A stretch of DNA of 13,120 nt, taken from the NCBI GenBank assembly GCA_964373425.1, contig CAYJUQ010000019.1:1-13120 (forward strand), in the 5' to 3' direction. How positions within the stretch are numbered: the first letter of the stretch is position 1; every line of letters begins with the position of its first letter. Positions 1-13,120 of this stretch are shown in pieces. The position numbers and the translations under genes were made by a program. A model generated the notes under the pieces. That model did no database searches. It was not told the DNA's origin and saw nothing but the letters and a program-made list of their open reading frames with translations. Source of the DNA: an uncultured Candidatus Saccharibacteria bacterium. GTDB taxonomy: Bacteria; Patescibacteriota; Minisyncoccia; JAHCSD01; CAYJUQ01.

Positions 1-1
1 C

Positions 2-30
2 TTGACACATTGTAACTGCCATGTTAGTAT
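2..30 (+). promoter_or_regulatory. Putative sigma-70 promoter TTGACA-17-TAGTAT upstream of the SPFH gene
   Basis: TTGACA at 2-7, a 17-nt spacer, TAGTAT at 25-30. This lies about 110 nt upstream of the ATG at 142. Confidence 0.4.
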
Positions 31-141
31 TGGAAGTTATGATCATCGTACTTTGAAAAAAGGAGGGAAAGGATGCGCTAGGGCATAAACCATCAATCCT
101 AAAACCAAACAATCGGAAAGTGTTCTTAAAAGGAGGAACAC

Positions 142-2193
142 ATGATATATGGGCTTATCGCAGTTGGTGCGGTCGCAGGGATTTTGATTCTCTTGTTCGT
201 GTTGCCTGGTTTTAGTCTGATTCGCGACCACCAAGTCGGCGTGCTTACCCGAAAAATGTTCGGGAAGAAAATGCCGCAAGGTCAGATCGTCGCGCGAAAT
301 AATGAGATCGGTATTCAGGCGCATACGCTCATGCCCGGTCTTTACTGGCGCTTGCCTATCGTATGGAAAATTGAGAAGGTTCAAGTAACTGACATCAATC
401 CCGATGAGATTGGTGTTGTCGAATCAGTTGACGGCAAACCAATTCCCACTGGACGGTTCCTCGCTGATGAAGTTGAGTGCAATTCATTCCAGGACGCAAA
501 GAAATTTCTTGATGACGGCGGGATGAAAGGGCCACAAGTTGCGATCCTTCGTCCCGGTACCTACCGAATCAACACAAAGGTTTTTACGGTAACGAAACAT
601 CCGGCAAGGAACGTTCCGAAAGAGCAAATGGGGGTTGTGGTTGCACTCGATGGCACACCGCTCCCGCCCGGCTTCATAGTGGCGCCCAAGCCACCCGAGA
701 TTTCTAGTAATGCACAACCGAATGCCAAGCCGCACAAGTTCTTTCAAGACGGTCAGGCATTCCTTGAGAGCGGGGGGTACCGTGGGCCGCAGCTCGATAC
801 GCTTCAGCCGGGCCAGTACTACGTAAATCCGCTGCTCTTCAGGGTTGATCTTTTCCCCGTGCAGGATGTTCCGCCCGGCTATGTTGCCGTGCTTCGTTCA
901 AACGTCGGCAAGGAACTCGATCAGAGCCACAAGACGCCGGCTGAGACAAGCCTCAAACCAGATCTCGGACAGCCGGTCCACGAATCAATCGAGACAATCT
1001 TGATTATGGATCGCGACACGCGGGGTATTTGGAATCAGCCGGTTGCGCCGGGTAAGTATAACTTGAACCCGGTTGCATTTACGCCGTACCTCGTGCCTAC
1101 AAGCGCAGTCACCATTGACTGGGCCCGCGGGAAGCGCGATCAGGAGGCGGAGCATGCAAACCCCGTCGATGAACGTACGTATGTTCATCGTGATACATCT
1201 GAGCACGACAAAGCCACAGAATTTTTCAAGTTCAGTCAGCTGCGCGTGACTTCGAAAGACGGATTCCAGCTCGATGTGGATGTTCGAATGGTAATTCGCA
1301 TCAGGCCCGAGAATGCCGCGTTCATCATCGCGCGGTTCGGTTCGGTGCGAAACCTCATCGAGCAGATTGTGCATCCCATGATCGATTCGTCCTTCCGCAA
1401 CAAGGCGGGCGAGAAGAAAGCAATCGATTTCGTGCAGACTCGTTCTGAACTCCAGAAAGAGGCGCTCGAGAAGGCACGTGAAGAGTTTCAACTGTACCAC
1501 GTTGAAGCGCAAAACCTCCTCATCGCCTATATCGCCGTTGATCAGGCACTTCTTGACACACAGACACTAAGAGAGATTGCGCTCCAGCAGCAGGAGCAGT
1601 ACCGCGAGCAAACAAGGGCAGAACAAGAACGGATCACGGTCCAGGAGCAAAGAGCACGTGCTGAAAAGCAGCCCGAGGTTGTTGCGGCAGAACTCGCAAT
1701 CAATATTGCAAGAAACAGGGCTTCTGCAGCTCGCGAAGAGGCGAATGGTATCCGTGACGCGACGAAAACCAAAGCTGATGGTGATGCATACCAACAGCGT
1801 GCGGTGGGTCGTGGCACTGCCGATGCATACCAAGCTCAGGCGAATGTACTTGGTTCTCAAGCTACCGCGATTCTTAAGGCGCTCGCTGAAGTTGCAAGCG
1901 GAAGCGTGAAGATCGTTCCCGACGTACTCGTTACGGGTAACCAAGGACAGCAGGGTAATCTCTTCAACGCATGGCTTGCAAACATGATGCGTAATCCCCA
2001 GGGTCCTTCCGGCGCCACGTTCACTTCTCGTGATGCGGCAACGGATGACCCCTCGTCACCAGCGGAGAGCCCTTCGGCGCAAGGTCAAGATGTAGATGCG
2101 CCGTCATCCGTCGCCAAGGCAAGCGGCAGATCTCGAAGACGAAATAGTGGTAGAGGCAAGGAGATAGAAAGTTCGGCTCCCCACTACGAGTAA
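142..2193 (+). CDS. SPFH/band-7 (flotillin-like) membrane protein with an N-terminal TM anchor, an internally repeated N-terminal segment, a coiled-coil/flotillin-like C-terminal region and a disordered acidic/basic tail
   Basis: 683-aa ORF. Strong RBS AGGAGG at 131-136, 5 nt before the ATG. A hydrophobic helix spans aa 4-26. Band-7 core motifs are present (RVTSKDGFQLDVDVRMVIRIRPENAA...IEQIVHPMIDSSFRNKAG). The C-terminal region is rich in E/A/Q/R (AEQERITVQEQRARAEKQ...AYQQRAVGRGTADAYQAQANVLG), as is typical of HflK/C-flotillin family proteins. Confidence 0.85.
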   Translation: MIYGLIAVGAVAGILILLFVLPGFSLIRDHQVGVLTRKMFGKKMPQGQIVARNNEIGIQAHTLMPGLYWRLPIVWKIEKVQVTDINPDEIGVVESVDGKPIPTGRFLADEVECNSFQDAKKFLDDGGMKGPQVAILRPGTYRINTKVFTVTKHPARNVPKEQMGVVVALDGTPLPPGFIVAPKPPEISSNAQPNAKPHKFFQDGQAFLESGGYRGPQLDTLQPGQYYVNPLLFRVDLFPVQDVPPGYVAVLRSNVGKELDQSHKTPAETSLKPDLGQPVHESIETILIMDRDTRGIWNQPVAPGKYNLNPVAFTPYLVPTSAVTIDWARGKRDQEAEHANPVDERTYVHRDTSEHDKATEFFKFSQLRVTSKDGFQLDVDVRMVIRIRPENAAFIIARFGSVRNLIEQIVHPMIDSSFRNKAGEKKAIDFVQTRSELQKEALEKAREEFQLYHVEAQNLLIAYIAVDQALLDTQTLREIALQQQEQYREQTRAEQERITVQEQRARAEKQPEVVAAELAINIARNRASAAREEANGIRDATKTKADGDAYQQRAVGRGTADAYQAQANVLGSQATAILKALAEVASGSVKIVPDVLVTGNQGQQGNLFNAWLANMMRNPQGPSGATFTSRDAATDDPSSPAESPSAQGQDVDAPSSVAKASGRSRRRNSGRGKEIESSAPHYE

Positions 2194-2202
2194 TAATTAT
2201 CC

Positions 2203-2238
2203 AAAGACTGCATGGGATCATGCAGTCTTTTTATTTCC
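2203..2238 (+). terminator. Rho-independent terminator (12-bp perfect stem, 4-nt loop, T-run)
   Basis: AAAGACTGCATG-GGAT-CATGCAGTCTTT followed by TTATTTCC. It sits 10 nt after the SPFH stop codon. Confidence 0.8.
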
Positions 2239-2309
2239 ATAGGAATGTTTTTTGTGGCGGGCTCATCCTTGATCCATCCAAGCTTCTTGAGGAGAAGTAA
2301 CGGTCAATA

Positions 2310-2340
2310 GGCGAAGTGCATAACTTCGCCTTTTCTTTTA
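2310..2340 (+). terminator. Second intrinsic terminator-like hairpin with a T-run
   Basis: GGCGAAGT-GCATA-ACTTCGCC followed by TTTTCTTTTATT. It is about 70 nt downstream of the first terminator. Confidence 0.55.
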
Positions 2341-2348
2341 TTCCACTC

Positions 2349-2377
2349 TTGATAAAATAGAAGTAGCGTGCTATACT
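2349..2377 (+). promoter_or_regulatory. Sigma-70 promoter TTGATA-17-TATACT driving clpB
   Basis: TTGATA at 2349-2354, a 17-nt spacer, TATACT at 2372-2377. A CIRCE element lies immediately downstream, which is the classic layout of HrcA-regulated promoters. Confidence 0.7.
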
Positions 2378-2382
2378 TGCCA

Positions 2383-2409
2383 TTAGCACTCTCATAAGAA
2401 GAGTGCTAA
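2383..2409 (+). promoter_or_regulatory. CIRCE element (HrcA operator), a perfect match to the consensus TTAGCACTC-N9-GAGTGCTAA
   Basis: TTAGCACTC at 2383-2391, the 9-nt spacer tcataagaa, GAGTGCTAA at 2401-2409. It starts 6 nt after the -10 hexamer and is upstream of clpB. Confidence 0.9.
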
Positions 2410-2431
2410 CCCCCATCTCTACTTGATTCTT

Positions 2432-2475
2432 TCGAGGGTCAATCCATCGTTTCGAAATAATGGATTGGCCCTCGA
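2432..2475 (+). other. 16-bp inverted repeat (one G-U/mismatch) forming a hairpin across the annotated ATG at 2460, in the clpB leader
   Basis: TCGAGGGTCAATCCAT at 2432-2447, a 12-nt loop, ATGGATTGGCCCTCGA at 2460-2475. Confidence 0.5.
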
Positions 2476-5165
2476 ACAGACTACTTCATTCTATGGATTT
2501 AAGTAAATTTACCGTAAAAGCACAAGAGGCGTTACGGAACGCCCAAGGGGTTGCGGGCGAGCGAGGTCATCAGCAAATTGATGCACTCCATCTTCTTGCG
2601 GCGCTCGTTCGCGAAGAGGATGGGATTGTTGCTTCAATCCTCGATCACCTCGGCCTCGATAAAATGGCGCTCATTGAGCGAACCTCCATTGCCATAAATC
2701 GTCTCCCGCGAATCGTGGGAGATTTACCGTTTGGGCAGGTGTATATCACTCAAGATCTCGGGCGCGTTCTTGATACGGCCGCAAAAGAAGCAAAAAACAT
2801 GACCGACGAGTTTATCAGCACCGAACATTTACTTCTTTCTCTTACCGACGTTCCCACGCGCGCGAAAGAGGTGATTGATGAGTTTAATGTCTCGGGGCCG
2901 CAACTCGTTGGGGTTGGCGGCAAAAAGGGACGTGAGAAATTAAATCGGGATATTATCCTCAAGGTGCTTGCAGAGCTTCGCGGCGGTACGCGCGTCTCCG
3001 ATGAGAACCCGGAATCGAAGTATCAGGTGCTTGAGAAGTATGCGCGAAACATCACAAAAATGGCACGGGGGCAGAAGCTTGATCCCGTGATCGGCCGCGA
3101 GAATGAAATTCGTAGAGTCATGCAAGTTTTGTCGCGCCGCACGAAGAATAACCCCGTACTTATTGGAGAGGCAGGCGTGGGGAAGACGGCCATTGTCGAG
3201 GGGCTTGCCCAGCGCATCGCATCGGGCGATGTCCCGGAAAGCCTCAAGGGGAAGGAGGTGATCGCCATGGACCTTGGGGCAATGGTTGCAGGTACCAAGT
3301 ATCGGGGTGAATTTGAAGATCGTCTCAAGGCGTTTGTCCGCGAGATTGAGAGAGCCGCAGGGAAAATCATACTTTTTATTGACGAGCTTCATATGCTTGT
3401 GGGGGCGGGCGCTGCTGAAGGCGCAATTGACGCATCAAATCTTTTAAAACCGGCACTTGCTCGCGGGGAGCTCCACGCCATTGGCGCAACTACGTTCAAA
3501 GAGTACCAGAAATATGTGGAACGGGATCCGGCGCTTGAACGCCGCTTCCAACCGGTCTATGTGAAAGAGCCGAGTATCGACGATACGATCGCGATCCTCC
3601 GCGGTATTAAGGAAAAATATGAAGTCTTCCATGGTGTTCGCATTACCGATCCTGCCATTCTTGGCGCGGTGAACCTCTCGGCGCGGTATATCTCCGACAG
3701 GTTCCTACCCGATAAAGCCGTAGACCTTATTGATGAAGCATGCTCTGCCCTTCGTATGGATATTGAAAGTCAACCGCAGGAGCTCGACGCGTTGAGTCGC
3801 GAAATCACGCGTCTTGAGGTTGAAAAACAGGCACTCAAAAAAGAAAGCGACAAGAAGAGTAAAGAGCGGCTGAGGCTTACCACAAAGATTCTCGAGGAGG
3901 AGAAAGAGAAGGCGAAAAGTTTGGAGCTTCGTTGGAAGAGTGAGCGGGATGTGATCAGCGCGATCAACAATACGAAAAAAGAATTGGACACTCTGCGAGA
4001 ACAGGCGGATATCTTTGAACGAAAGGGAGACCTTGAAAAGGTGGCAGAAGTTCGCTACGCGAAAGTCCCCGAGCTTGAAAAAGAGCTCCGTAGAAAACAG
4101 CGCGAACTTGCCAAACTCCAAAAAACAAAGGCGATCGTCAAAGAAGAGGTCACGGAAGAGGATATCGCCAAAGTGGTTTCCCGCTGGACGGGTATTCCTG
4201 TTGCAAAAATGCTTCAGGAAGAAGTGGTAAAACTTGCTTCAATGGAGGTGGAACTTCACAAACGCGTTATCGGGCAGGATGAAGCGATCGAGGCCGTTTC
4301 GAACGCGGTACGAAGATCACGCGCAGGGATCGGCGAGGAGCGAAAACCCATCGGTACCTTTATCTTTCTTGGCCCCACGGGTGTCGGGAAAACCGAGCTT
4401 GCAAAGGCCCTTGCCGAGTTTATGTTCAACGATGAAAATGCGCTCGTCCGTGTTGATATGTCGGAGTACATGGAATCGCACACCGTATCAAAGTTCATTG
4501 GCTCACCCCCAGGATACATTGGCTATGAGGAAGGAGGACAGCTTACCGAGATGGTGCGACGTCGCCCCTATAGCGTTGTCCTTTTCGATGAGATCGAAAA
4601 AGCGCATGCCGAAGTTTTCAATATTCTCCTTCAGATACTTGACGAGGGAAGGCTTACCGATGCGAAAGGGCGGGCAGTGAACTTTAAAAATACCATCGTT
4701 ATCATGACCTCAAACATCGGCACCGAACTTACCCGACGTCTTGCGCATCTCGGCTTTTCTGCGAAAGACGAGGATCATGAAAAGGAAGAAGATATTAAAC
4801 AAAAAATTCGCGATGCCCTGCACCACCACTTCAAACCGGAATTTTTGAACCGGCTTGATGAGATCATCGTCTTCGACAGCCTAAAAGAGAAAGATATTCG
4901 CGCGATAGTTGATCTCCAGCTTGCCCAGGTTTCAAAACGGCTCCAGGCAAAAGGCATTCGGATCGAGTTTAAGGAACAAGTGAAAAAGGTGCTTGCCCAA
5001 AAGGGGTTCGATCCTGATTTTGGCGCACGACCCTTGAAACGCGTCATCCAACAGTTGGTACTCGATGCCGCCGCAAAACTCATCATTGCCGGGAAGATCA
5101 AAGAAGGAGGAGGCGTGGTTGTTGATGTGAAAGGCGATGAAGTCATCATAAGGGCCGCGCCGTAA
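2460..5165 (+). CDS. clpB: ClpB disaggregase chaperone (class I AAA+, two NBDs plus a coiled-coil M-domain). The true start is probably the in-frame ATG at 2493 ([14 protein letters not shown]...).
   Basis: Walker A of NBD1 is [18 protein letters not shown] and Walker A of NBD2 is [18 protein letters not shown] long coiled-coil middle domain and a C-terminal GARPLKR motif are present. The length (about 890-901 aa) fits ClpB and not ClpA or ClpC. The canonical ClpB N-terminus MDL.KFT begins at codon 12. Confidence 0.95.
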
Positions 5166-5188
5166 ATGTACGCTTCTTTTGTCATTTC

Positions 5189-5890
5189 ATGTTTTCACTT
5201 TTCATCCCCTCTTTTCTTTTTTTCGTGGTGCTTGAGATAGCACGCGCGAACCCCTCTTCTTTTTTTATTTTTGCGCCTCTTACCATTTTCGCCCAGATAC
5301 TCATCGGGCTTTTTGGTTTGAAAAAGCCATCGCGTTACCTTCTCCCCGCGTTCTATGTTGTCTCGGGGCTTCTTGTCACGCTCGCACCCCCCCCTACGCC
5401 GCAGCACCACCTCCTCTTTATTCTTATCAGTGTGGGGTATGCGTTTCTCGTCTTCGCCCTGCGTCATATGGGCGAATCTTCCCGTGATGAGGAGCGTTTT
5501 CATCTTCTTTCGCTTGCATGTCTTTTTATATTTTTTGTGAGCATCTTTTACCTTGCCGCGTTCTTTAACGTATCGTTCACCGCGATGCTTTTTGCGATTG
5601 CGCTTGGTGCAGGGTGGATAACATTCATCACCATCCCTCGCTCACCCTACTCGTTTCTTTCAAGCCTCCTCGGCGCGCTCCTTATGTCTGAGACAGGTTG
5701 GGCCATATCGTTTTTCCCCTTTAGCTATTTAACCATTGCCTCTTTCCTTTTTATCATCTACTATACCCTGTGGAAGCTCCTTCGGGCATCGCTCACCCAG
5801 ACGCTTACACGACGTGTGCTTATCGCCAATCTCCTTTTCTTGTTGGCGGGCGGCGCGGTGATCGCAGTTCTTACTCCTTGGCTTCCCTAA
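5189..5890 (+). CDS. Hypothetical polytopic membrane protein (about 6-7 predicted TM helices)
   Basis: 233-aa ORF consisting of repeated hydrophobic stretches (LLPAFYVVSGLLVTL, LFILISVGYAFLVFAL, LACLFIFFVSIFYLAAFF, AMLFAIALGAGWITFITI and others). It is tightly packed between clpB and the next gene (7-nt gap). No SD is visible and the start codon is uncertain. Confidence 0.5.
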   Translation: MFSLFIPSFLFFVVLEIARANPSSFFIFAPLTIFAQILIGLFGLKKPSRYLLPAFYVVSGLLVTLAPPPTPQHHLLFILISVGYAFLVFALRHMGESSRDEERFHLLSLACLFIFFVSIFYLAAFFNVSFTAMLFAIALGAGWITFITIPRSPYSFLSSLLGALLMSETGWAISFFPFSYLTIASFLFIIYYTLWKLLRASLTQTLTRRVLIANLLFLLAGGAVIAVLTPWLP

Positions 5891-5896
5891 CTTTAT

Positions 5897-6652
5897 ATGG
5901 GGCGTACGCAAAAGCTTTTTTTCTTTCTTTTCGTGTGTGCGATTGGCGCTCTCGGCGGGATCGTTGGTGAGCGCGTTGTGTTTCCTTACCTTGCATCATT
6001 CGAGACGCTTGCAAAGTTTCGATTTATTAGGAGCTACGGAACCACTATTATCAGGCAGGAACCTAGAGTGGTGATCCAGGAAAATGAATCCATCCAAAAC
6101 GCAATAAGCGAGGTGAGGCGACAAGTGATAGGTGTTGCAGGGGTGGCGAGCGACGGCACGTTCGACCGATGGGCAACAGGCGTTGTGGTGACTGCAGACG
6201 GTCTTATTCTCACCTCCGATAACGTTCTTGGAGAGGGGCTCACCTACAGGGTGTACTTTGAGGGCGAGAATGTGAGCGCCGCGTTCCGCATCCGTGATTC
6301 ACATACCGGGCTTGCCCTTTTCCGTGTAGAGAAATCTGATCTTCCTATTGTTTCGTTTGCGGCACGCGATAGTATCCGGCTTGGAGAGCCAATTTTTCTC
6401 CTTGGCCGTGAGCCTGCAAGCGGAGGGAACCTCCCCCCGCCATTTATCTCTTTCGGGATTTTGAGCTTTCTTGCCGAAAGCCGGACATTTCGCACAGAGT
6501 TTCCCACCGGCGTACGAACCGGCAGAGAAGGCGCACCGCTCTTTGACGTGGAGGGAAAGCTCATCGGACTTGTTTCGGCAAAGAGCGACGGCGAACTCAT
6601 CCCCGCCAATATTGAAGCAATTACCACCCTTATTGATCTTTCGCGTAACTAA
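5897..6652 (+). CDS. Membrane-anchored HtrA/DegP-like (S1C trypsin-fold) domain protein lacking a PDZ domain. It appears catalytically dead because the triad residues are substituted.
   Basis: N-terminal hydrophobic anchor (LFFFLFVCAIGALGGIVG). The trypsin-fold blocks can be aligned to DegP as follows. TGVVVTADGLILTSDNVL aligns with GSGVII..GYVVTNNHVV. RIRDSHTGLALFRV aligns with VGKDPRSDIALIQI. RLGEPIFLLGRE aligns with RVGDYTVAIGNP. PTGVRTGREGAPLFDVEGKLIGL aligns with TDAAINRGNSGGALVNLNGELIGI. His becomes Asn, Asp becomes Gly and Ser becomes Glu. Confidence 0.65.
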   Translation: MGRTQKLFFFLFVCAIGALGGIVGERVVFPYLASFETLAKFRFIRSYGTTIIRQEPRVVIQENESIQNAISEVRRQVIGVAGVASDGTFDRWATGVVVTADGLILTSDNVLGEGLTYRVYFEGENVSAAFRIRDSHTGLALFRVEKSDLPIVSFAARDSIRLGEPIFLLGREPASGGNLPPPFISFGILSFLAESRTFRTEFPTGVRTGREGAPLFDVEGKLIGLVSAKSDGELIPANIEAITTLIDLSRN

Positions 6653-6681
6653 CAAAGAGGGACAGTCTTTCTTCTTTTCTT

Positions 6682-7719
6682 ATGAACCTTCTCATTACCG
6701 GCGGTGCCGGATTCATCGGCTCAAACTTCATACGTCACATCCTCTTCACCTATCCAGACTATCGCATTATTAATCTTGATAAGCTCACTTACGCAGGGAA
6801 TCTTGAAAACCTTAAGGATATTGAGAATTATCCGCGGTATGGGTTTGTGAAAGGCGATATCTGTGATCGTGAGCTTGTCGATAGGCTTGTTTCGCGTCGG
6901 CCCGATGCTATTATTAACTTCGCGGCGCATTCGCACGTGGATCGCTCCATTCTTGATCCGACTGCGTTCATTCATGATAATTTCATTGGCGTTCAAATCC
7001 TGCTTGAAGCGGCAAAAAAGCATAAAGTTGAACGATTTGTTCAGGTGAGCACCGACGAGGTTTACGGCTCGGTTGACGAGGGGTACTGTGATGAAGGCGC
7101 GAAGCTTGACCCCCGAAATCCCTATTCAGTGTCTAAAGCAGCAGCCGATCTCCTTTCGCTTTCGTACTCGAAAACCCACGGTGTCCCCGTTATTATTACT
7201 CGTTCATCCAATAATTTCGGCCCCCATCAATTTCCGGAAAAACTTATTCCGCTTTTCATCACGAATCTTCTTGAGGGCAAAAAAGTTCCCCTCTATGGAG
7301 ACGGGATGAACCTTCGCGATTGGCTGCATGTCGCTGATAACTGCGAAGCGATTGATCGCGTGCTCCACGAAGGGAACGCGGGGGAGATTTATAACATCGC
7401 GGGAGCGAACGAACGGACCAACCGTGAAATTACCGAGGTCATTCTTGAGGAGCTGGGGAAAGACGAAAGCTCGATTACATACGTTGAGGATCGGCCGGGA
7501 CATGACAGACGCTACGCGATAAGCGCAGCAAAAATACAAAGTCTTGGCTGGGAGCCGAAGTACCGCTTCAAAGAGGCGCTTCGCGACACCATCGCGTGGT
7601 ACAGGAACAACGAGGAGTGGTGGCGGCGTATAAAATCAGGTGCGTACCAGGATTACTACCAAAAGCAGTATGGCGGGCGGAAGGTTTTGCATGACGCATC
7701 GGCACTTCCGATCGCATAA
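6682..7719 (+). CDS. rmlB: NDP-glucose 4,6-dehydratase of the RmlB/RfbB family (extended SDR)
   Basis: TGGAGFIGS Rossmann motif. The family-specific blocks are present: LDKLTYAGNLENL, AAHSHVDRSI, STDEVYG, YSVSKAAAD (YxxxK), NNFGPHQFPEKLIP, PLYGDGMNLRDWLHVAD and RPGHDRRYAI. Length is 345 aa. Confidence 0.9.
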   Translation: MNLLITGGAGFIGSNFIRHILFTYPDYRIINLDKLTYAGNLENLKDIENYPRYGFVKGDICDRELVDRLVSRRPDAIINFAAHSHVDRSILDPTAFIHDNFIGVQILLEAAKKHKVERFVQVSTDEVYGSVDEGYCDEGAKLDPRNPYSVSKAAADLLSLSYSKTHGVPVIITRSSNNFGPHQFPEKLIPLFITNLLEGKKVPLYGDGMNLRDWLHVADNCEAIDRVLHEGNAGEIYNIAGANERTNREITEVILEELGKDESSITYVEDRPGHDRRYAISAAKIQSLGWEPKYRFKEALRDTIAWYRNNEEWWRRIKSGAYQDYYQKQYGGRKVLHDASALPIA

Positions 7720-7725
7720 CGTGTG

Positions 7726-7764
7726 CGGAGGTCTCGCCCCCTTCTCACGAGGGCGAGACCTCCG
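7726..7764 (+). other. GC-rich 14-bp perfect hairpin between the rmlB stop and the galU start, with no trailing T-run
   Basis: CGGAGGTCTCGCCC at 7726-7739, an 11-nt loop, GGGCGAGACCTCCG at 7751-7764. The GTG at 7723 that the ORF track uses as a start lies inside this stem. Confidence 0.5.
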
Positions 7765-7770
7765 TGTACT

Positions 7771-8652
7771 ATGACGTCTTGGAAGGTAAAAAAAGTTGTT
7801 ATTCCCGTTGCAGGGCTTGGCACACGGTTCTTGCCGGCAACAAAAGCAGTCCCCAAGGAACTTCTTCCCATTGTTGATACGCCAGTGGTGCAGTATCTTG
7901 TCGAAGAAGCAGTGGCCTCTGGTATCCAAGAGGTTATTTTTGTTATTTCTCCTGACAAGGAAACTATCCGCCACCACTTTTCAAAACATCACGCACTTGA
8001 ACGGCAGCTCCTTTCACGAAAAAAGCACGATCTGGTTGAGATCGTGCGGGATGTTGCTCGTCTTGCATCATTTTCGTTCGTCTATCAGCATGAGCCAAGG
8101 GGCGATGCCCATGCGATACTTTGCGCAAAGCGTATGGTGGGAGATGAGCCGTTCGCCGTGCTCTACGGCGATGACGTGGTAGATGCAAAAACCCCCGTTT
8201 TAAAACAGCTCCTTCGGGCGTTTGAGAAATACCGTGCACCCATTATGGCGCTTGAGCGTTTACCTCGCGAGGTGCTCCACCGCTACGGCGTCGTAGGCGC
8301 AACGCGCGTTAGAGAGCGAACGTACCGCATTGCAGGCGTTGTGGAAAAGCCATCACCCCGGGAGGCGCCCTCCAATCTTACGATTGTAGGGAAGTACGTT
8401 CTTCCTCCACGCAGTATGGGAACGTTAGAGAAAGTGATTCGCCGGGGGCAATCCTTTCCGTTTGAAACACGACTTACCGATTTTTTCCTTTCATGGCTTG
8501 CCGAAGGAAAACCACTTTACGGCGTTGAATTTAGGGGAGAGCGTTTTGACTGCGGCGACAAACTTGGCTATGTGAAGGCGCAAATCCACTTCGCGATGAA
8601 GCGAAAAGACCTTAGCGCCGAGCTCCGATCATATCTTAAAAAGATTAAATAG
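7771..8652 (+). CDS. galU: UTP--glucose-1-phosphate uridylyltransferase (GalU). ATG start at 7771 (the ORF track begins at an upstream GTG at 7723).
   Basis: The nucleotidyltransferase motifs are present: KVVIPVAGLGTRFLPATKAVPKELLP; VEKPSPREAPSNLTIVGKYVL, which corresponds to GalU [21 protein letters not shown]; and DCGDKLGYVKAQ, which corresponds to DCGNKLGYMQA. Length is about 293 aa from 7771. Confidence 0.9.
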   Translation: MTSWKVKKVVIPVAGLGTRFLPATKAVPKELLPIVDTPVVQYLVEEAVASGIQEVIFVISPDKETIRHHFSKHHALERQLLSRKKHDLVEIVRDVARLASFSFVYQHEPRGDAHAILCAKRMVGDEPFAVLYGDDVVDAKTPVLKQLLRAFEKYRAPIMALERLPREVLHRYGVVGATRVRERTYRIAGVVEKPSPREAPSNLTIVGKYVLPPRSMGTLEKVIRRGQSFPFETRLTDFFLSWLAEGKPLYGVEFRGERFDCGDKLGYVKAQIHFAMKRKDLSAELRSYLKKIK

Positions 8653-8686
8653 AACGGGGGGGCAGACCCCTACGGTTGCGCTATGT

Positions 8687-8718
8687 AAAATGCCACGCGG
8701 TTCTTTGCGTGGCATTTT
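8687..8718. terminator. Bidirectional intrinsic terminator between convergent genes
   Basis: AAAATGCCACGC-GGTTCTTT-GCGTGGCATTTT followed by GTTT. An A-run and a T-run flank a 12-bp stem. It lies between the galU stop (8652) and the stop of the minus-strand ORF (8722). Confidence 0.75.
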
Positions 8719-8721
8719 GTT

Positions 8722-9069
8722 TCACTTTCTTTTTAGTATCTCGAATGATTCCACCTCGCCCGTACTCAATGTTGCACTACCACCCTCAAGACCGAATTCG
8801 AGTCGCAGCCCCCTGATAATCCATCCGGCCTTGAGCACGTTGTCGGTTCCTTTCGATCCGCGGAACCAGACCTCCTCCCCATTTTTGGTAAAGTGTTTTC
8901 CTCCATTGAGGAATACCCTTCTCTTTTTAGGGTCAAGGACGATGAGCTCATACGAGGTCGGTGTCGAGGGGTTTCTTGTGATAACACGGATTACGGTCCT
9001 TCGAGAGAGCCTTTCAATACAGAGTCGGTTATCTGACTCGTCTTTAAGTGATTCAGTTCTTCGCTTCAA
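8722..9069 (-). CDS. Hypothetical small protein (115 aa) with a TTG start
   Basis: Strong SD GGGAGGT 5 nt upstream of the TTG at 9067-9069 (minus strand). It has its own promoter and is convergent with galU. The basic N-terminus and the core SYELIVLDPKKRRVFLNGGKHFTKNGEEVWFRGSKGTDNVLKAGWIIRGL show no motif I can assign. Confidence 0.6.
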   Translation of the reverse strand: MKRRTESLKDESDNRLCIERLSRRTVIRVITRNPSTPTSYELIVLDPKKRRVFLNGGKHFTKNGEEVWFRGSKGTDNVLKAGWIIRGLRLEFGLEGGSATLSTGEVESFEILKRK

Positions 9070-9123
9070 CTTATACCTCCCATCTCTTGTTTTGTCTTGG
9101 CGGGTGGGCTAAGCGATGTGGGT

Positions 9124-9152
9124 ATGATAGCAAAATTTTTCTCTCGTGTCAA
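9124..9152 (-). promoter_or_regulatory. Putative sigma-70 promoter TTGACA-17-TATCAT (minus strand) for the 115-aa gene
   Basis: Minus-strand TTGACA corresponds to plus 9147-9152. There is a 17-nt spacer, then TATCAT at plus 9124-9129. Confidence 0.45.
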
Positions 9153-9186
9153 GATTTCTTGAAGAACATACTGCGGGTGAAAACAA

Positions 9187-9212
9187 AAAGCGGCTTTTTG
9201 TGGCGCCGCTTT
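9187..9212 (-). terminator. Intrinsic terminator for the small membrane-protein gene (minus strand)
   Basis: On the minus strand this reads AAAGCGGC-GCCACAAAAA-GCCGCTTT followed by TTGTTTTC. Confidence 0.5.
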
Positions 9213-9260
9213 GTATGTTGCACGGGAGATTTTTACCTTCGATTTTAGAGTGAGTGTGGA

Positions 9261-9506
9261 TTACCGATCGCCAAGAGAGGCGATGGCAAGACCCCAGAAG
9301 ACGCCGATAAGGGCAAGGGCACCCCCTGCCATTTCTGCGAAGAGGATTTTCACAATATTCCAGCCGACGTCGCTTCCATCAATCGGAGTGCTTGTGAGGG
9401 CTTCTGCAAGCCCCACAATCCCGGTGATGAACATGAAGGACCATACCGCGATACCGCCAAGAATTGCCGCAATGCAGATGAGAACTCCGATAACTTTGGA
9501 GAACAC
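9261..9506 (-). CDS. Small two-TM membrane protein (81 aa) with a GTG start
   Basis: SD AGGGGGT 6 nt upstream of the GTG at 9504-9506 (minus strand). Two hydrophobic helices are present (VIGVLICIAAILGGIAVWSFMFITGIVGL and GGALALIGVFWGLAIASL). A terminator follows downstream. Confidence 0.55.
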   Translation of the reverse strand: MFSKVIGVLICIAAILGGIAVWSFMFITGIVGLAEALTSTPIDGSDVGWNIVKILFAEMAGGALALIGVFWGLAIASLGDR

Positions 9507-9554
9507 GGTTTACCCCCTTTCAAGGAACAGCATGTGTCCTGCATAGACACATCA

Positions 9555-9583
9555 TATTTAGCAAAATTGATTTATATTGTCAA
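9555..9583 (-). promoter_or_regulatory. Possible promoter TTGACA-17-TAAATA (minus strand) for the small membrane-protein gene
   Basis: Minus-strand TTGACA corresponds to plus 9578-9583, and TAAATA to plus 9555-9560. The -10 hexamer is weak. Confidence 0.3.
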
Positions 9584-9604
9584 CATTCTGGGTAGTTTAA
9601 TAAT

Positions 9605-9636
9605 AAAAGCCCACGGCAAGATGCCATAGGCTTTTT
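9605..9636 (-). terminator. Terminator-like hairpin downstream of the NDT-Nudix gene (minus strand), with T-runs on both sides
   Basis: AAAAGCC-CAC-GGCA-AGA-TGCC-ATA-GGCTTTT followed by TGATGG. On the minus strand a TTATTATT run follows the stem. Confidence 0.5.
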
Positions 9637-9651
9637 GATGGTTTTGAATGT

Positions 9652-10821
9652 TCATACATCAGGTTTCATAATAACCGAGAGAATCATACCAACCGTACTC
9701 CAGTCAGCAAGATTTTCGAGGAGCAATTCTTTAAGAGATCGGATTTCAACATAGGTTCTCTCGCCCGTGGGATTATCCTTGCTTAGCCCATGGACAATCC
9801 CTTCTTGTTGATGCAGCCACTCAAGTTCTTTCTGCGTAAGCTTCACAGAAAATACATGGGCCGTGTGGGTCGAAAAAGTTCCAACAAGCTGCCGCCTGCC
9901 GTGTGACTTAAGGCGTTCTTTCTCTACCGAGAATCCGGTTTCTTCGTTTACTTCTTCGGAAGCGACTTCGAGAGGATCAGTATTTGGTGTAAACGATGAA
10001 CCTCCGGGAAGTTCCCAGATGAATCCATCGGGAGTTCGGGCAGGACTCCGAAATTCACGGACAAGCACAACTTTTGATTCCAGAATCTTGCTCTCGGGGT
10101 AGTACATGACCACCGTAGAGATGTCGGGCCGAGAGAGGATAACCTCGTTTGTTTTGTTTCGGTTTTCTTTGGCCACATGGACGTTTACATGCAGGGCCCA
10201 ACAGTAAACATTATTGCGTTTCGGGCCAACGCGGAATACCCATTTTACTGCGGCGCCATCAAGACGATTTCCTGCTCCTTGCTGGGTTTGATACCACGAC
10301 TGGAATTGAGATGTATTCCAGATCATGAGAGGAACATACCGTTCGCCTTCCGCGCGAAGAGCTCCATTGCCAACCATTTGAAGCGCATACGCAATGGTTT
10401 CCCGTAACGTATGGGCTTCTGGGATACCTGTTTTTTCAGCTACAACGCGTAGGTAGTTAGTCTTCGGTGCCTTTTGGGGAGCACCAAAGACAACCTTTGC
10501 CGATTCGGCCCAAAGACCAAACTCGACATTTGTGGTAAAGGCGGGCATCGTCTTCAGATTCCTTGGTACCCAGAATACGATGCAATCTGCGATTCCGAGC
10601 ATTCGATGTTCCCAATCGATTTGTGAGCGGTATGACCAGGTCATTTTTCCATCTCTGCTTTCGGGGACAAATACTACCCCGTCGTAGCCACACTTCGTAA
10701 GAATGCGCAGGGCTCGAGGCCGCCACGATGCAACCGTTGCTGATCGAGGAGTTGGTCCGGCAAGAAAAAGAGATTTGGTAAATGAACTCGGGGGTTCTTC
10801 CATCGAATACACCACGTGCAT
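9652..10821 (-). CDS. Two-domain fusion protein: an N-terminal DNPH1/Rcl- or nucleoside 2-deoxyribosyltransferase-like domain and a C-terminal Nudix hydrolase domain
   Basis: SD GGAGGG 5 nt upstream of the ATG. The N-terminal region (FLAGPTPRS...GVVFVPE...IDWEHRMLGIADCIVFWVP...TNVEFGLWAES) follows the DNPH1/NDT fold pattern (FCGSIRGG...LTEHV...DLEWLQQADVVVAEV...GVGYELGRA), including the catalytic Glu. The C-terminal region carries a degenerate Nudix box (GGSSFTPNTDPLEVASEEVNEETGF) flanked by beta-rich segments. Confidence 0.75.
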   Translation of the reverse strand: MHVVYSMEEPPSSFTKSLFLAGPTPRSATVASWRPRALRILTKCGYDGVVFVPESRDGKMTWSYRSQIDWEHRMLGIADCIVFWVPRNLKTMPAFTTNVEFGLWAESAKVVFGAPQKAPKTNYLRVVAEKTGIPEAHTLRETIAYALQMVGNGALRAEGERYVPLMIWNTSQFQSWYQTQQGAGNRLDGAAVKWVFRVGPKRNNVYCWALHVNVHVAKENRNKTNEVILSRPDISTVVMYYPESKILESKVVLVREFRSPARTPDGFIWELPGGSSFTPNTDPLEVASEEVNEETGFSVEKERLKSHGRRQLVGTFSTHTAHVFSVKLTQKELEWLHQQEGIVHGLSKDNPTGERTYVEIRSLKELLLENLADWSTVGMILSVIMKPDV

Positions 10822-10860
10822 GGTATCCCTCCAGTAATTATCAATGTACTATGACCTAGG

Positions 10861-10889
10861 ATTATAGCTTATGATGGAGACTATGTCCA
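10861..10889 (-). promoter_or_regulatory. Sigma-70 promoter TGGACA-17-TATAAT (minus strand) for the NDT-Nudix gene
   Basis: Minus-strand TATAAT corresponds to plus 10861-10866. There is a 17-nt spacer, then TGGACA at plus 10884-10889. Confidence 0.5.
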
Positions 10890-10908
10890 CCCCTTGAACA
10901 CATATTTT

Positions 10909-10940
10909 AAAAAGCCGTTTTAGCGACGGCTTTTAAAAAC
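10909..10940 (-). terminator. Terminator hairpin downstream of the M50 protease gene (minus strand)
   Basis: AAAAAGCCGT-TTTAGCG-ACGGCTTTT, with A/T runs on both flanks. Confidence 0.5.
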
Positions 10941-10944
10941 TAAT

Positions 10945-11766
10945 CTACAAAAATCGATTAATGTCTCCTGCGAAGATAAGGAAGATAAGCGTTACAATTG
11001 CAACTATCGAGACGAGTCCAAAGAGCGGCAGCGCTTGTTTTCCGAGCACCCGTTCGATAATCATCCCGAAAATCCTGCCACCATCAAGCGGCAGAAGCGG
11101 CAGCATGTTGAAAATGCCGATTCCGAAGGAGATAGCCACCGCAAGGCGGAACACCTCGATCGCCGTCTTCAACGTCGTTGCTTCATGCGTGATGCCGATG
11201 GGGCCGATCAGTATCGGATCTTTGTCTGCCGGAGCACCGCCGTGGAGCGCTGATTCCTGAAAGTTTTCTATAAGTCCTGGAATCAGGGTGTAGAGGAGGA
11301 GGCCCACAAACGCAAGGCCGAGTATCGGAATACCGATGCTGCAGAATAGTTTCGAAAATCGCACGATGACAAGGGCAATCGCAGTCATGGCGATAAGACG
11401 AATGTAGACCGCCGGTTCACCAAGATCTTTGAAAATAAAGAGCGCGATGATCGTAAGGAGACTCCCCACAAGGACGTTTCCGAGCACTCCCGCGCCGAAA
11501 ATCAAAGCGCGCTCGCGGTAGGGGAGGGCATTTGTTTGTTGATTGCCTCGCGGTGTTGGCTCAACATAAGCACCGAGGAAGATGGGGGAGAGGGTTAAGG
11601 GGAACGAGAGCCATGGTACTCGAAACCGAAATATAAATCCCGGAATCGGGATGCCGAGCCCCGCTTCTTTAATCTCTACACCATACCTTCGCATCGCAAT
11701 CGCATGCGCAGCTTCATGAATTACAAGGTTCAAAATCAAAAACACAAAGATGAACGCGATATTCAT
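10945..11766 (-). CDS. M50 family site-2 protease (zinc metalloprotease), minimal type without a PDZ domain
   Basis: HExxH motif within a TM helix (VIHEAAHAIAMRRYGV). A second conserved motif is NMLPLLPLDGGRIFGMI (the LDG motif). About 6 TM segments are predicted. Length is 273 aa. Confidence 0.85.
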   Translation of the reverse strand: MNIAFIFVFLILNLVIHEAAHAIAMRRYGVEIKEAGLGIPIPGFIFRFRVPWLSFPLTLSPIFLGAYVEPTPRGNQQTNALPYRERALIFGAGVLGNVLVGSLLTIIALFIFKDLGEPAVYIRLIAMTAIALVIVRFSKLFCSIGIPILGLAFVGLLLYTLIPGLIENFQESALHGGAPADKDPILIGPIGITHEATTLKTAIEVFRLAVAISFGIGIFNMLPLLPLDGGRIFGMIIERVLGKQALPLFGLVSIVAIVTLIFLIFAGDINRFL

Positions 11767-11812
11767 CCAACAGCCGCCTTTCTGGGTACATTTTCAAAGT
11801 GCGGAATGGTTG

Positions 11813-11841
11813 ATATTACCACACGGATGTACATACCGCAA
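11813..11841 (-). promoter_or_regulatory. Putative promoter TTGCGG-17-TGgTAATAT (extended -10, minus strand) for the M50 gene
   Basis: Minus-strand TAATAT corresponds to plus 11813-11818 and is preceded by TGG. The -35 hexamer TTGCGG corresponds to plus 11836-11841. Confidence 0.3.
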
Positions 11842-11970
11842 GCGTTTTATCATAGTTCAAAACCCGGGAATAATCCTACAGCGAAAAATCTAACCATCCC
11901 ACCAAGTATAAAATTGACAATCTTCGCGACAAGCCCCCCAATGCTTGGCATTGAGGATACCCCTGCGTTT

Positions 11971-12047
11971 GACAGACGGTATAAGAACTGCTAGACAGAT
12001 CTATATTGTTAGACAGACCCATACTGCGAGACAGATTTATATTGTAT
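11971..12047 (+). repeat. Four tandem direct repeats of (A)GACAGA-N3/4-ATA-N-TG with an 18-22 bp period (iteron/operator-like)
   Basis: GACAGAcggtATAag at 11971, AGACAGAtctATAtTG at 11993, AGACAGAcccATAcTG at 12011, AGACAGAtttATAtTG at 12030. The run ends in TTGTATAAT (a -10-like sequence at 12045-12050), immediately before palindrome copy 1. Confidence 0.6.
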
Positions 12048-12051
12048 AATT

Positions 12052-12106
12052 CCCATCCGGCAAATACTTCCATGCTTTTAAGCATGGAAGTATTTGCCGG
12101 GATGGG
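12052..12106 (+). repeat. Long palindromic element, copy 1 (about a 27-bp stem with a 1-nt bulge), overlapping the start of the TrpR-like gene
   Basis: CCCATCCGGCAAATACTTCCATGCTT-tt-AAGCATGGAAGTATTTGCCGGgATGGGG. A related copy is found at 12709-12757. Confidence 0.7.
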
Positions 12107-12633
12107 GTCACGCATTAATGGCGAGATCAAGATTATCAAAACCACTCACGAAAGAAGACGAAGAGTTACTTGTAGAGTTTTGTGAAGCACTCGTTGCCTT
12201 GAGTACTCCGGAAGAGGCAGGAAAGTTTTTATCGGATCTCCTTTCGAATGTTGAGGCGCGTATGTTTGCGCGTCGTCTTAAAATTGCAAAGTTTCTTTTG
12301 GCTGGCTGGACATTCAGTGAAATCGAAAACAGTCTGAAGGTTGGCCCCGCTACCATCGCGAGGGTAGGTGAATGGCTGAAAATATACGGTGACGGATACC
12401 GACTTGTGGAGCAACGAACGAAAAGAAAGCTAAAGCAACCCTCGCTTGCGCGGGATCACCTTTGGCGAAACCTCAAACGACGCGCTCCATTAGCTTTTTG
12501 GCCAGAAATGCTTATCGAAGATCTCGTCCGGAATGCGAATAAGAAACAAAGAGAACGGATGACGCGTGTGTTGAGAGCGATGGATCAGAAGTCAGAACTT
12601 TATAAACGAATAGATCAACTTCTGAAACAATAA
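12094..12633 (+). CDS. TrpR/YerC-YecD family helix-turn-helix DNA-binding protein with a basic C-terminal extension. The ORF track starts at TTG 12094; the in-frame ATG at 12118 (MARSRLSKPL...) is the likelier start.
   Basis: Trp-repressor-like fold signature: LSTPEEAGKFLSDLLSNVEARMFARRLKIAKFLLAGWTFSEIENSLKVGPATIARVGEWLK (the TP-E...R..I...LL.G.T..EI...LGV..ATI.R pattern). The K/R-rich C-terminal region is about 80 aa. Confidence 0.7.
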   Translation: MPGWGHALMARSRLSKPLTKEDEELLVEFCEALVALSTPEEAGKFLSDLLSNVEARMFARRLKIAKFLLAGWTFSEIENSLKVGPATIARVGEWLKIYGDGYRLVEQRTKRKLKQPSLARDHLWRNLKRRAPLAFWPEMLIEDLVRNANKKQRERMTRVLRAMDQKSELYKRIDQLLKQ

Positions 12634-12666
12634 ATAATCCATTCCGGATTTCATAATTATCTCATA

Positions 12667-12700
12667 GTTTTTTTCTCGCCAAGTTTTTTTTCTCGTCAAA
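12667..12700 (+). repeat. Tandem T-rich direct repeat (GTTTTTTTCTCGCCAA / GTTTTTTTTCTCGTCAAA)
   Basis: Two adjacent copies, 16 and 18 nt long, 34 nt after the stop of the TrpR-like gene and just before palindrome copy 2. Confidence 0.5.
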
Positions 12701-12708
12701 TTGAAATC

Positions 12709-12757
12709 AGACAAATACTTCCACGCTTAAAAGCGTGGAAGTATTTGCCGGGATAGG
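12709..12757 (+). repeat. Palindromic element, copy 2 (17-bp perfect stem), 42/49 identical to copy 1 with a compensatory T>C/A>G change in the stem
   Basis: CAAATACTTCCACGCTT-aa-AAGCGTGGAAGTATTTG followed by CCGGGATAGG. The right-hand 30 nt is nearly identical to copy 1 (AAGC[A/G]TGGAAGTATTTGCCGGGAT[G/A]GG). Confidence 0.7.
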
Positions 12758-12787
12758 TAAATCGGGGGTGAATCGTGTTGGTGGGAA

Positions 12788-12817
12788 TTGACAGGAAAGA
12801 TGAAGAGATAGTACATT
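12788..12817 (+). promoter_or_regulatory. Putative promoter TTGACA-18-TACATT for the downstream partial gene
   Basis: TTGACA at 12788-12793 and TACATT at 12812-12817. Confidence 0.3.
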
Positions 12818-12861
12818 AGAGAACATGACCCTCGAGTCGTTTTGTGTTTCATTCAACTAGT

Positions 12862-13120
12862 ATGGGGTTTCACCTACTCAAGAGCGATAAATTCAAGTAC
12901 ATCATTACCCCCGCCATCGGTTTCGGCCTCGCCGGCGCCCTGTGGGGTTTAGACATTTATCGGGGTGCTGTGGGGAGTGACGAAGCATTTATCAATCCAT
13001 TCTCCTATATTTCAGGAGCTTTTTTATTTGGCATTTTGGGCAGTTTATCCCTCGTGGTCTTTTCAGGAGATGTGAAACGGATATTGAAGGTAGTAGGGCT
13101 TGGCCTTGTTGGGTGGATCG
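12862..13120 (+). CDS. Partial CDS (5' end only; it runs off the window): hypothetical membrane protein
   Basis: The ATG at 12862 opens a frame with no stop before the window ends. The translation MGFHLLKSDKFKYIITPAIGFGLAGALWGLDIYRG...FLFGILGSLSLVVFSG...VVGLGLVGW has helix-like hydrophobic segments. Confidence 0.4.
   Translation, partial: MGFHLLKSDKFKYIITPAIGFGLAGALWGLDIYRGAVGSDEAFINPFSYISGAFLFGILGSLSLVVFSGDVKRILKVVGLGLVGWI

Follow-up and report, generated by a model that had tools for sequence, protein, structure and literature searches.

Twin palindromes flanking a long-form TrpR/YerC-family gene of Patescibacteria are candidate operators of an autoregulated repressor

Background

The locus described here raises the question of why two copies of one long palindrome should bracket a single gene for a TrpR/YerC-like regulator. 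It lies in a 13,120-nt stretch of DNA from an uncultured Candidatus Saccharibacteria bacterium (contig CAYJUQ010000019.1 of GenBank assembly GCA_964373425.1, positions 1 to 13,120 of the forward strand), the whole of which is referred to below as the window. A first-pass annotation, made by a model from the letters alone, had pointed out the two elements and a paired substitution between them, and had offered three roles: an operator pair for the adjacent helix-turn-helix (HTH) protein, a genomic repeat family of the repetitive extragenic palindrome (REP) or miniature inverted-repeat transposable element (MITE) kind, and recombination or processing sites of a mobile single-gene cassette. The analysis reported here suggests that the palindromes are probably twin duplex-DNA operators, each with four half-sites, to which the autoregulated repressor encoded between them would bind, possibly looping across its own gene. 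The Patescibacteria, or candidate phyla radiation (CPR), are mostly uncultured and have very few transcription factors, and to our knowledge the regulation of their genes is almost entirely unexplored.

Two copies of one palindrome bracket the gene

Sequence, a chance test and folding all confirmed that two copies of one palindrome bracket a gene of the TrpR/YerC family. Copy 1, upstream of the gene, has 21-bp arms without a mismatch, which reach 26 bp if one bulged G is allowed (outer pairs CCCAT/(G)ATGGG); copy 2, downstream, has mismatch-free arms of 17 bp, and its right flank, GCCGGGATAGG, repeats that of copy 1 (coordinates in Table 1). The 15-mer GGAAGTATTTGCCGG (at most 3 mismatches) occurs four times in the window, always inside one of the two copies, as against 0.41 occurrences expected by chance, and four occurrences were reached in none of 200 shuffles. 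The predicted single-strand folding energies are -45 kcal/mol (z = -11.6) for copy 1 and -27 kcal/mol (z = -6.1) for copy 2.

The 42/49 identity between the copies reported in the first-pass annotation is true for 12058-12106 against 12709-12757 (spacing 651), the copy-1 coordinates given there being off by one base and, taken literally, yielding 18/49. The paired T>C and A>G change that it described was found at T12073/A12084 in copy 1 (ATGCT/AGCAT) and C12724/G12735 in copy 2 (ACGCT/AGCGT). Copy 1 does not overlap the translation start, as had been supposed: the mechanical open reading frame (ORF) begins at TTG 12094, and since the N-terminus MA(R/K)FS is conserved in at least 40 homologues, the start is placed at ATG 12118, 10 nt past the end of the palindrome. 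Copy 2 begins 75 nt past the stop codon (12631-12633), as had been noted, and it also held that neither copy is followed by a T-run; a terminator scan of 11700-13120 flagged neither element as a G+C-rich stem with a U-run directly behind it, the mark of an intrinsic terminator, and the flanks are GGGGTCACG and CCGGGATAGG. When the same region was searched against Rfam at a permissive threshold, only sub-threshold matches to miRNA-like hairpins appeared, the best of which reached 21.5 bits where the gathering score is 70.

The central 4 nt of the two copies, TTTA (12077-12080) and TAAA (12728-12731), are reverse complements of each other. The centres are therefore inverted between the copies although the right flanks match in direct orientation, and the loop appears flipped, as in template switching or recombination within hairpins.

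The regulator

The protein, of 171 aa, is a member of the TrpR/YerC superfamily by domain, by family cut-offs and by fold. It scored 52.0 bits with Pfam PF01371 (Trp_repressor; cut-off 27) and 51.3 bits with NCBIfam TIGR02531 (yecD_yerC; cut-off 42.2); its score with the TrpR equivalog TIGR01321 was 20.2 bits, below the cut-off of 67.25. Residues ~16-105 make up the TrpR/YerC HTH domain, with the recognition helix TIARV, and the family alignment shows a conserved helical C-terminal extension of ~70 aa bearing the motif (F/Y)WPxLL(L/I)E(E/D), in which W128-P129 is invariant; the protein is thus not of the small single-domain size (~90-110 aa). An AlphaFold model made from 40 homologues (predicted local distance difference test score, pLDDT, 87.9) contains ten helices. 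Foldseek matched it (probability 1.00, target TM-scores 0.72-0.89) to the YerC/HisR-type structures 3KOR, 3FRW and 3G1C and to E. coli TrpR in its tandem-binding complex (1TRR), the match being confined to residues ~10-105; the last ~70 residues of the predicted model had no PDB match.

A homologue search with the single protein gave 2 matches. When 1.84 billion cluster representatives were searched with a profile, 1945 relatives were found at E<=1e-3, of which 341 reached E<=1e-10. Among the best 150 relatives listed, lengths are mostly 160-200 aa. All named sources are Patescibacteria/CPR (Portnoybacteria, Doudnabacteria, Chisholmbacteria and 'Patescibacteria group'), so that, by source names, the family appears to be confined to Patescibacteria.

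Conservation of the pair with the gene

Eighty metagenome loci were retrieved by protein motifs alone and were thus chosen independently of the DNA element. With a pair defined as a match of at least 24/30 bases between sequence in the 150 nt ahead of the gene and sequence around its stop codon (null maximum 23), the pair was present in 40 of the 56 non-redundant loci with enough flank, all from Patescibacteria/CPR and encoding homologues of 30-64% identity; two further loci carry it beyond the range examined for this count. Further copies were thus searched for in related genomes and found there, as flanking pairs around homologues down to 30% identity. The only close homologue (locus L003, 64% identity) has a flawless 56-bp palindrome 13 nt 5' of its ATG and a flawless 48-bp palindrome 115 nt 3' of its stop codon, both of the window sequence type and differing from the window at several positions by changes in both arms (AAATAC>AAACAC, TTCCAT>TTCTAC). 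The 46% homologue (L004) has two copies of a shorter, 22-bp palindrome, TACAATACTA-CA-TAGTATTGTA, one directly past a TTGACA-17-TAGAGT promoter and the other covering the stop codon, and even a Doudnabacteria protein of 163 aa and 30% identity (L104) is encoded between two flanking copies. About ten of the remaining 14 loci form one subclade with slightly longer homologues and a single 26-bp palindrome (arms ccatcaATACTAG and ATAGTATTGATGG) centred 10-23 nt 5' of the ATG; a recognisable downstream copy was not found in these ten loci.

The layout was also examined with a pattern of only the four ACT/AGT cores (see below), applied to all the related DNA (~400 kb). It gave 61 sites, and in regulator-encoding loci all but two of them lie directly 5' of the gene or at its stop codon; the two exceptions (L073, L094) lie ~90 nt inside the called 3' end of the regulator gene, and the +/-2.5 kb flanks of these loci have no core-pattern site elsewhere. 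The window and L003 share copy-specific marks, GGCAAA in copy 1 and GACAAA in copy 2. These marks, together with the retention of the pair at ~30-64% identity, argue for long vertical co-inheritance and not for recent insertion.

In one Portnoybacteria-type locus (L023, ~2213-2340 and 3146-3275; also in L024 and L025), the entire palindrome-regulator-palindrome unit is bracketed by a ~130-bp direct repeat, 90 bp of it identical, which holds the start of a truncated glycosyltransferase-like ORF. This suggests local duplication or insertion by recombination.

Anatomy of the element

Across the family, the consensus reads CAAATACTnnCATACT-N4-AGTATGnnAGTATTTG, 36-40 bp long, or, about the dyad, nCAAATACTnnCATACTnn on the left and nnAGTATGnnAGTATTTGn on the right, the left outer arm being rich in A and the right one in T. 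Each arm contains two half-sites of the (A/G)TACT type, whose ACT cores occupy offsets 13-11 and 5-3 from the dyad and are thus spaced by 8 bp. The inner inverted pair is ATACT-N4-AGTAT, which makes up the whole site in L004, and the outer pair lies 8 bp beyond it on each side. When palindromes were found by symmetry alone, the ACT cores were the most conserved positions, with the T at offset 11 invariant in 52/52. The inner half-sites of the window are ATGCT in copy 1 and ACGCT in copy 2, and the compensatory position described in the first-pass annotation is the second base of the inner half-site. As the core TAGTAT resembles a -10 box, the palindrome was also considered as a promoter, but its spacing to -35-like hexamers is inconsistent and this was rejected.

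We found that the palindrome varies with the lineage of the protein that it flanks: ATACT is present in most loci, GTGCT in L059, AACGATTC in L078 and ATGGTAC in L102, and there is an L104 type. In parallel with the conservation of the ACT core, the recognition helix hardly varies from TIAR(V/I), and altered inner half-sites accompany its TIAK variants in 5/6 cases. This correspondence is suggestive only, because the loci are related.

Position relative to promoters

In the window, a TATAAT hexamer adjoining the left edge of copy 1 is the predicted -10 box of the regulator promoter, with no good -35 box and no full promoter called there by the promoter scan. The dyad would thus lie at about +21 from the putative transcription start. 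The same spacing from the -10 to the dyad occurs in L055, L056, L057, L088 and L089, and in loci of this configuration, with a -10-like hexamer adjoining the left arm, the dyad is at about +14 to +21. In about ten loci, a TATAAT-type -10 hexamer is found 6-8 nt 5' of the ATG (exact in eight), which implies leaderless mRNA in several Patescibacteria lineages. In the seven of these in which the dyad was mapped, it is at -43 to -71 from the ATG, over or beyond the -35 box, and in L104 the right arm contributes TTGCAG, 17 bp from TATAAT. A palindrome 5' of a leaderless-type -10 would not be transcribed; only the window-type configuration would place the element in the mRNA. Both dyad positions are classical operator positions.

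On the upstream side of copy 1, the window also contains four direct repeats of ~18-23 nt (11968-12051; starts at 11971, 11994, 12012 and 12030), each with GACAGA and two of them of the form AGACAGAt(c/t)TATATTGT, which adjoin copy 1 and extend into the TATAAT. A second regulator might bind there, or the repeats might be tandem promoter-like elements; they are not present in the orthologous upstream region of L003.

The downstream dyad usually lies 6-25 bp past the stop codon and sometimes 4 bp ahead of it, the left arm often including the stop codon itself; in the window (+96) and in L003 (+138) it is unusually distant. The genes behind it vary: a tRNA-Tyr/tRNA-Thr pair, putative uppP (12 nt later), putative mutM, glycosyltransferase genes or convergent genes. 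Since the downstream copy is kept even in loci that lack a downstream promoter for it to control, the role for which it is conserved must be tied to the regulator gene. In the eight loci with tRNA-Tyr(GTA)/tRNA-Thr(GGT) (tRNAs confirmed in seven, in L100 by sequence only), a promoter of the form TTGAA-N17-TATnAT for the pair begins directly past the palindrome, and the downstream site could also gate transcription of stable RNA there. In the window, the promoter-like site listed in Table 1 starts 31-41 nt past copy 2, depending on the palindrome edge used, and precedes the next gene (ATG 12862), for a small membrane protein with an N-terminus like that of its L003 homologue.

The distance between the two dyads is 546-826 bp (34 loci). 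A Rayleigh scan of these distances had its best period at 10.4-10.5 bp (R = 0.29, p ~0.06 for that period alone), which is not significant after allowing for the range of periods scanned, and the distances do no more than hint at helical phasing.

Symmetry of the arms

The covariation of the arms was analyzed with sites detected by their ACT/AGT cores only, a detection that is blind to the remaining positions. At offsets 8, 9, 10 and 14, which carry little information, complementarity was found in 81-87% of 54 sites, as against 30-52% expected from column composition. Over the whole core-found alignment, 89.2% of the cells are paired (72.5% in shuffles), 143 cells are double-changed (48.5±5.1 in shuffles) and the covariation score is 0.432 (0.148 shuffled, 0.06-0.14 for slid partners), all three figures being inflated by relatedness among the sites. 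The two copies beside the same gene, which see the same protein, give a sharper test and were compared in 23 loci. They show 54 single-arm differences and 27 double changes at the same offset, 16 of which leave both copies complementary; 13.5 double and 2.9 compensatory changes were expected from permutation, and the observed values were reached in 0/5000. As compensatory changes thus exceed permutation across the 23 loci, the T-A>C-G change of the window is one example of a genuine trend across the family towards preserving the dyad.

The covariation noticed in the first-pass annotation therefore generalises across the family, but RNA structure, one of the two levels proposed there, is not singled out. 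Mismatched positions consist of 22 G/T, 23 A/C and 70 others, showing no preference for G·U; single-arm differences within loci exceed compensatory ones by more than 3:1; and the position of the element relative to the promoter is variable, being 5' of the predicted promoter in several loci. These observations argue that the constraint acts on DNA rather than on sense RNA, and neither mark of a structured RNA was found in the elements, which match no curated family and whose pairing is not maintained by G·U pairs together with compensatory changes in a transcribed strand. Quasipalindrome template switching is a known mutational process that restores the symmetry of arms without selection. The symmetry kept at positions at which the copies diverge may mean either that hairpin or cruciform geometry is functional, or that such template switching has acted without selection.

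Sites away from the regulator gene

One genome per species was scanned with the pattern CAAAYACTTC-N16-GAAGTRTTTG, the scanned set being one to which the genome of the window does not belong. Eighteen loci were found, as against ~4 expected by chance (our estimate from pattern degeneracy and database size). About half of them (Bacillus, Marinobacter, Streptococcus, Bacteroidota and others) are likely to be chance symmetric hairpins. The other nine are Patescibacteria loci with the same 36-bp core and a family-type palindromic interior, and a profile search found no TrpR-like gene in the <=8 kb around each of them. Two metagenome-assembled genomes (MAGs) each have two such solo sites, on different contigs. 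The sites lie at secA, atpC, putative infA, putative radA and glycosyltransferase genes (Table 1; gene names are readings of ORF N-termini, not profile matches). The site in L015 is a family-type 36-bp palindrome, CAAACACTTCAATACTGCGAAGTATTGAAGTGTTTG. The right arm of the L017 site carries the lineage-specific variant CACTTCTACGCT, as do the sites flanking the L003 gene, and this shared variant is what a regulon of the L003 protein would be expected to look like.

The remaining genes of the window encode ClpB, an SPFH protein, rfbB-like and rfbA-like sugar-nucleotide enzymes, an M50 peptidase and a DUF5656 protein. A profile scan of the window found no his or trp genes and no recombinase, integrase, transposase or RAYT gene.

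Table 1. Features of the window (coordinates in the window), groups of related loci and solo sites
Feature	Position or loci	Strand	Basis or remark
Copy 1, palindrome upstream of the regulator gene	12052..12107		sequence, folding, family alignment for half-site register
Copy 1, mismatch-free arms	12057-12077 and 12080-12100		dyad between 12078/12079; 26-bp arms span 12052-12107
Copy 1, half-sites	12064-12068, 12072-12076, 12081-12085, 12089-12093		ATACT, ATGCT, AGCAT, AGTAT
Copy 2, palindrome downstream of the regulator gene	12709..12757		sequence, folding, alignment with copy 1
Copy 2, mismatch-free arms	12712-12728 and 12731-12747		dyad between 12729/12730
Copy 2, half-sites	12715-12719, 12723-12727, 12732-12736, 12740-12744		ATACT, ACGCT, AGCGT, AGTAT
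Long-form TrpR/YerC-family gene, 171 aa	12118..12633	+	PF01371, TIGR02531, AlphaFold/Foldseek, family alignment
TATAAT hexamer, predicted -10 of regulator promoter	12045..12050	+	sequence; spacing recurring in homologous loci
Promoter-like site TTGACA-18-TACATT	12788..12817	+	promoter scan
Single-palindrome subclade	L039, L044, L046, L047, L048, L054, L073, L077, L086, L092		
Leaderless-type loci	L038, L049, L053, L061, L062, L072, L078, L079, L083, L104		
tRNA-pair subclade	L055, L056, L060, L064, L075, L088, L089, L100		tRNA genes 100-200 nt past regulator stop
Convergent downstream genes	L026, L028, L034, L072		
Solo site, L008			past putative radA
Solo site, L011			just 5' of TTGACA-17-TAAGAT promoter
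Solo site, L015	1868-1903		in frame inside 379-aa family-1 glycosyltransferase-like ORF, Saccharibacteria MAG
Solo site, L017			79 nt 5' of secA ATG
Solo site, L019			between two glycosyltransferase genes
Solo site, L020			between atpC and following gene
Solo site, L022			divergent region beside putative infA

Function of the palindromes

The recurrence of the two-copy layout down to 30% identity and the four half-sites at fixed spacing favour the operator pair among the roles offered in the first-pass annotation, and from them we infer protein binding, repression and looping as follows. With four half-sites, each operator could accommodate a pair of dimers or one tetramer. Protein bound to copy 1, just 3' of the -10 box, would repress transcription of the regulator's own gene. 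Copy 2 lies ~650 bp from there, at the opposite end of the gene, and would offer the protein a further binding site with an effect on the same gene. Most plausibly, it would either loop to copy 1 by protein-protein contacts, possibly through the family-specific C-terminal domain, or serve as a roadblock when protein is bound to it. In some lineages, copy 2 may also gate an adjacent downstream promoter.

Several observations weigh against this interpretation. The identity of the bound protein is suggested by co-location and by the resemblance of the half-sites, and the promoter positions are consensus-based predictions. An ATACT-N4-AGTAT centre with outer sites 8 bp beyond it differs from both the TrpR arrangement, GNACT-N8, and the 20-bp HisR motif, and how the outer sites would accommodate a standard TrpR-type dimer is not obvious. 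Solo palindromes are present with no regulator gene within <=8 kb, one of them inside an ORF. The symmetry at the low-information offsets 8-10 and 14 would not be expected, nor would the excess of compensatory changes between copies, which a variant-tolerant protein alone does not explain and which points to an added hairpin or cruciform constraint or to templated correction between the arms.

It was also considered whether the palindromes work as hairpins, in RNA or as extruded DNA cruciforms, i.e. as insulating or terminating stem-loops or as 5' and 3' stabilisers bracketing the regulator transcript, with their sequence conservation reflecting a structure-specific binding partner rather than a duplex operator. 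The very stable predicted folds would agree with this, as would the strong covariation of the arms with its compensatory excess between copies of one locus, the flawless L003 palindromes, which have no spacer, the location of most downstream copies from the stop codon onward, where terminators sit, and the A-rich left and T-rich right outer arms, which are like those of bidirectional terminators. We regard it as unlikely, however, since the mismatches show no G·U excess, single-arm differences outnumber compensatory ones, and the four ACT cores are strongly conserved, with constant spacing, among homologues of ~40% identity, which a stem alone does not need; moreover, the upstream copy would be outside the mRNA in the ~10 leaderless-type loci, judged from their predicted -10, and the copies in the window have neither a U-run nor a match to an Rfam family. 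The palindromes could also be genome-wide sites of some other conserved Patescibacteria protein, such as a global regulator or a chromosome-organising factor of the parS/NBS/matS kind, of which the TrpR-like gene is merely a conserved target. This would account for the nine solo loci and for the two MAGs with sites on two contigs each, but would not be expected to make the palindrome shift with the lineage of the flanked protein, to place the L003-type variant upstream of secA in L017 or to leave the regulator loci free of other sites within +/-2.5 kb, and it seems distinctly unlikely.

Sites of a mobile single-gene cassette, or a REP/MITE-like repeat family, the other roles offered in the first-pass annotation, are highly improbable. 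No integrase, transposase or RAYT gene was found in the 13-kb window, which contains the two copies only; every site in the regulator loci is at that gene; and the pair is kept, with copy-specific marks common to orthologues, over ~30-64% protein identity. An integron cassette was rejected as well, as attC-type R'/R'' cores (RYYYAAC...GTTRRRY) are in neither element. These observations stand against a few that a cassette would explain, namely the widely varying neighbours of the regulator, the Doudnabacteria palindrome-gene-palindrome unit set tightly between glycosyltransferase genes, the direct repeat around the unit in L023 and the existence of solo palindromes, one within an ORF. Lastly, the interpretations may be combined, with a protein-bridged loop between the two four-half-site palindromes enclosing the gene of a regulator that occurs across the Patescibacteria, palindromes dependent on hairpin or cruciform formation and a small regulon, the protein being one of few global regulators in these reduced genomes. 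We consider this combination unlikely. If it were true, dependence on hairpins or cruciforms would explain the symmetry at positions that the protein tolerates, and the regulon would be one of growth and cell envelope (tRNA-Tyr/Thr, secA, the neighbour of the atp operon and glycosyltransferase operons).

With twin operators as the preferred interpretation, the outcome is a concrete candidate regulator-operator pair, with a defined protein family, a 36-40-bp consensus and a site at each end of the gene. The consensus makes it possible to predict regulons by motif scanning of MAGs, and the family sites provide a natural data set on how symmetry is maintained in long palindromic operators.

Comparison with known systems

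Full-text literature searches found no description of this regulator family or motif in Patescibacteria, and the closest published work is a study of HisR (PMC9413887). As reported there, the HisR operator motif is a 20-bp palindrome, cacTTTA-N6-TAAAgtg. The TrpR half-site is GNACT (cf. PMC9413887), and the E. coli trp operator likewise has ACT cores at a distance of 8 bp. The window regulator has in common with HisR (YerC) and TrpR the DNA-binding fold, a palindromic (here putative) target and a site 5' of the regulator's own gene, and the (A/G)TACT core of its family, repeated every 8 bp as in the trp operator, resembles the TrpR half-site. In contrast, HisR and TrpR are under ~110 aa and lack the ~70-aa C-terminal extension, whereas the window regulator and its homologues are mostly 163-200 aa in length; neither the 20-bp HisR operator nor the TrpR operator type TGTACTnGTnnACnAGTACA was found, the spacing GNACT-N8-AGTNC of TrpR differing from the N4 centre and four half-sites of the window family; and the window regulator has a second copy of the element at the 3' end of its gene and no his or trp genes nearby. 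Given its extra conserved domain, different operator geometry, lack of an amino-acid biosynthesis context and second, 3' putative operator, the protein is no typical HisR or TrpR.

Bidirectional intrinsic terminators and REP palindromes are, like the window family, stable intergenic hairpins with A-rich left and T-rich right edges, and the downstream copy, like a bidirectional terminator, is usually at the stop codon. They differ from the window family in that the base-specific cores of the latter have been kept over deep divergence, neither copy in the window is followed by a U-run, one copy often lies 5' of the predicted promoter and there is no multi-copy dispersal near the loci.

Looped operator systems include gal OE/OI and lac O1/O2. 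The lambda CI repressor belongs to an unrelated protein family, and looping and cooperativity are proposed here from the layout, the hint of phasing being marginal; nevertheless, the layout of the window is like that of OR and OL, multi-site operators that lie on either side of the repressor gene, a few hundred bp apart, and have a capacity for several dimers.

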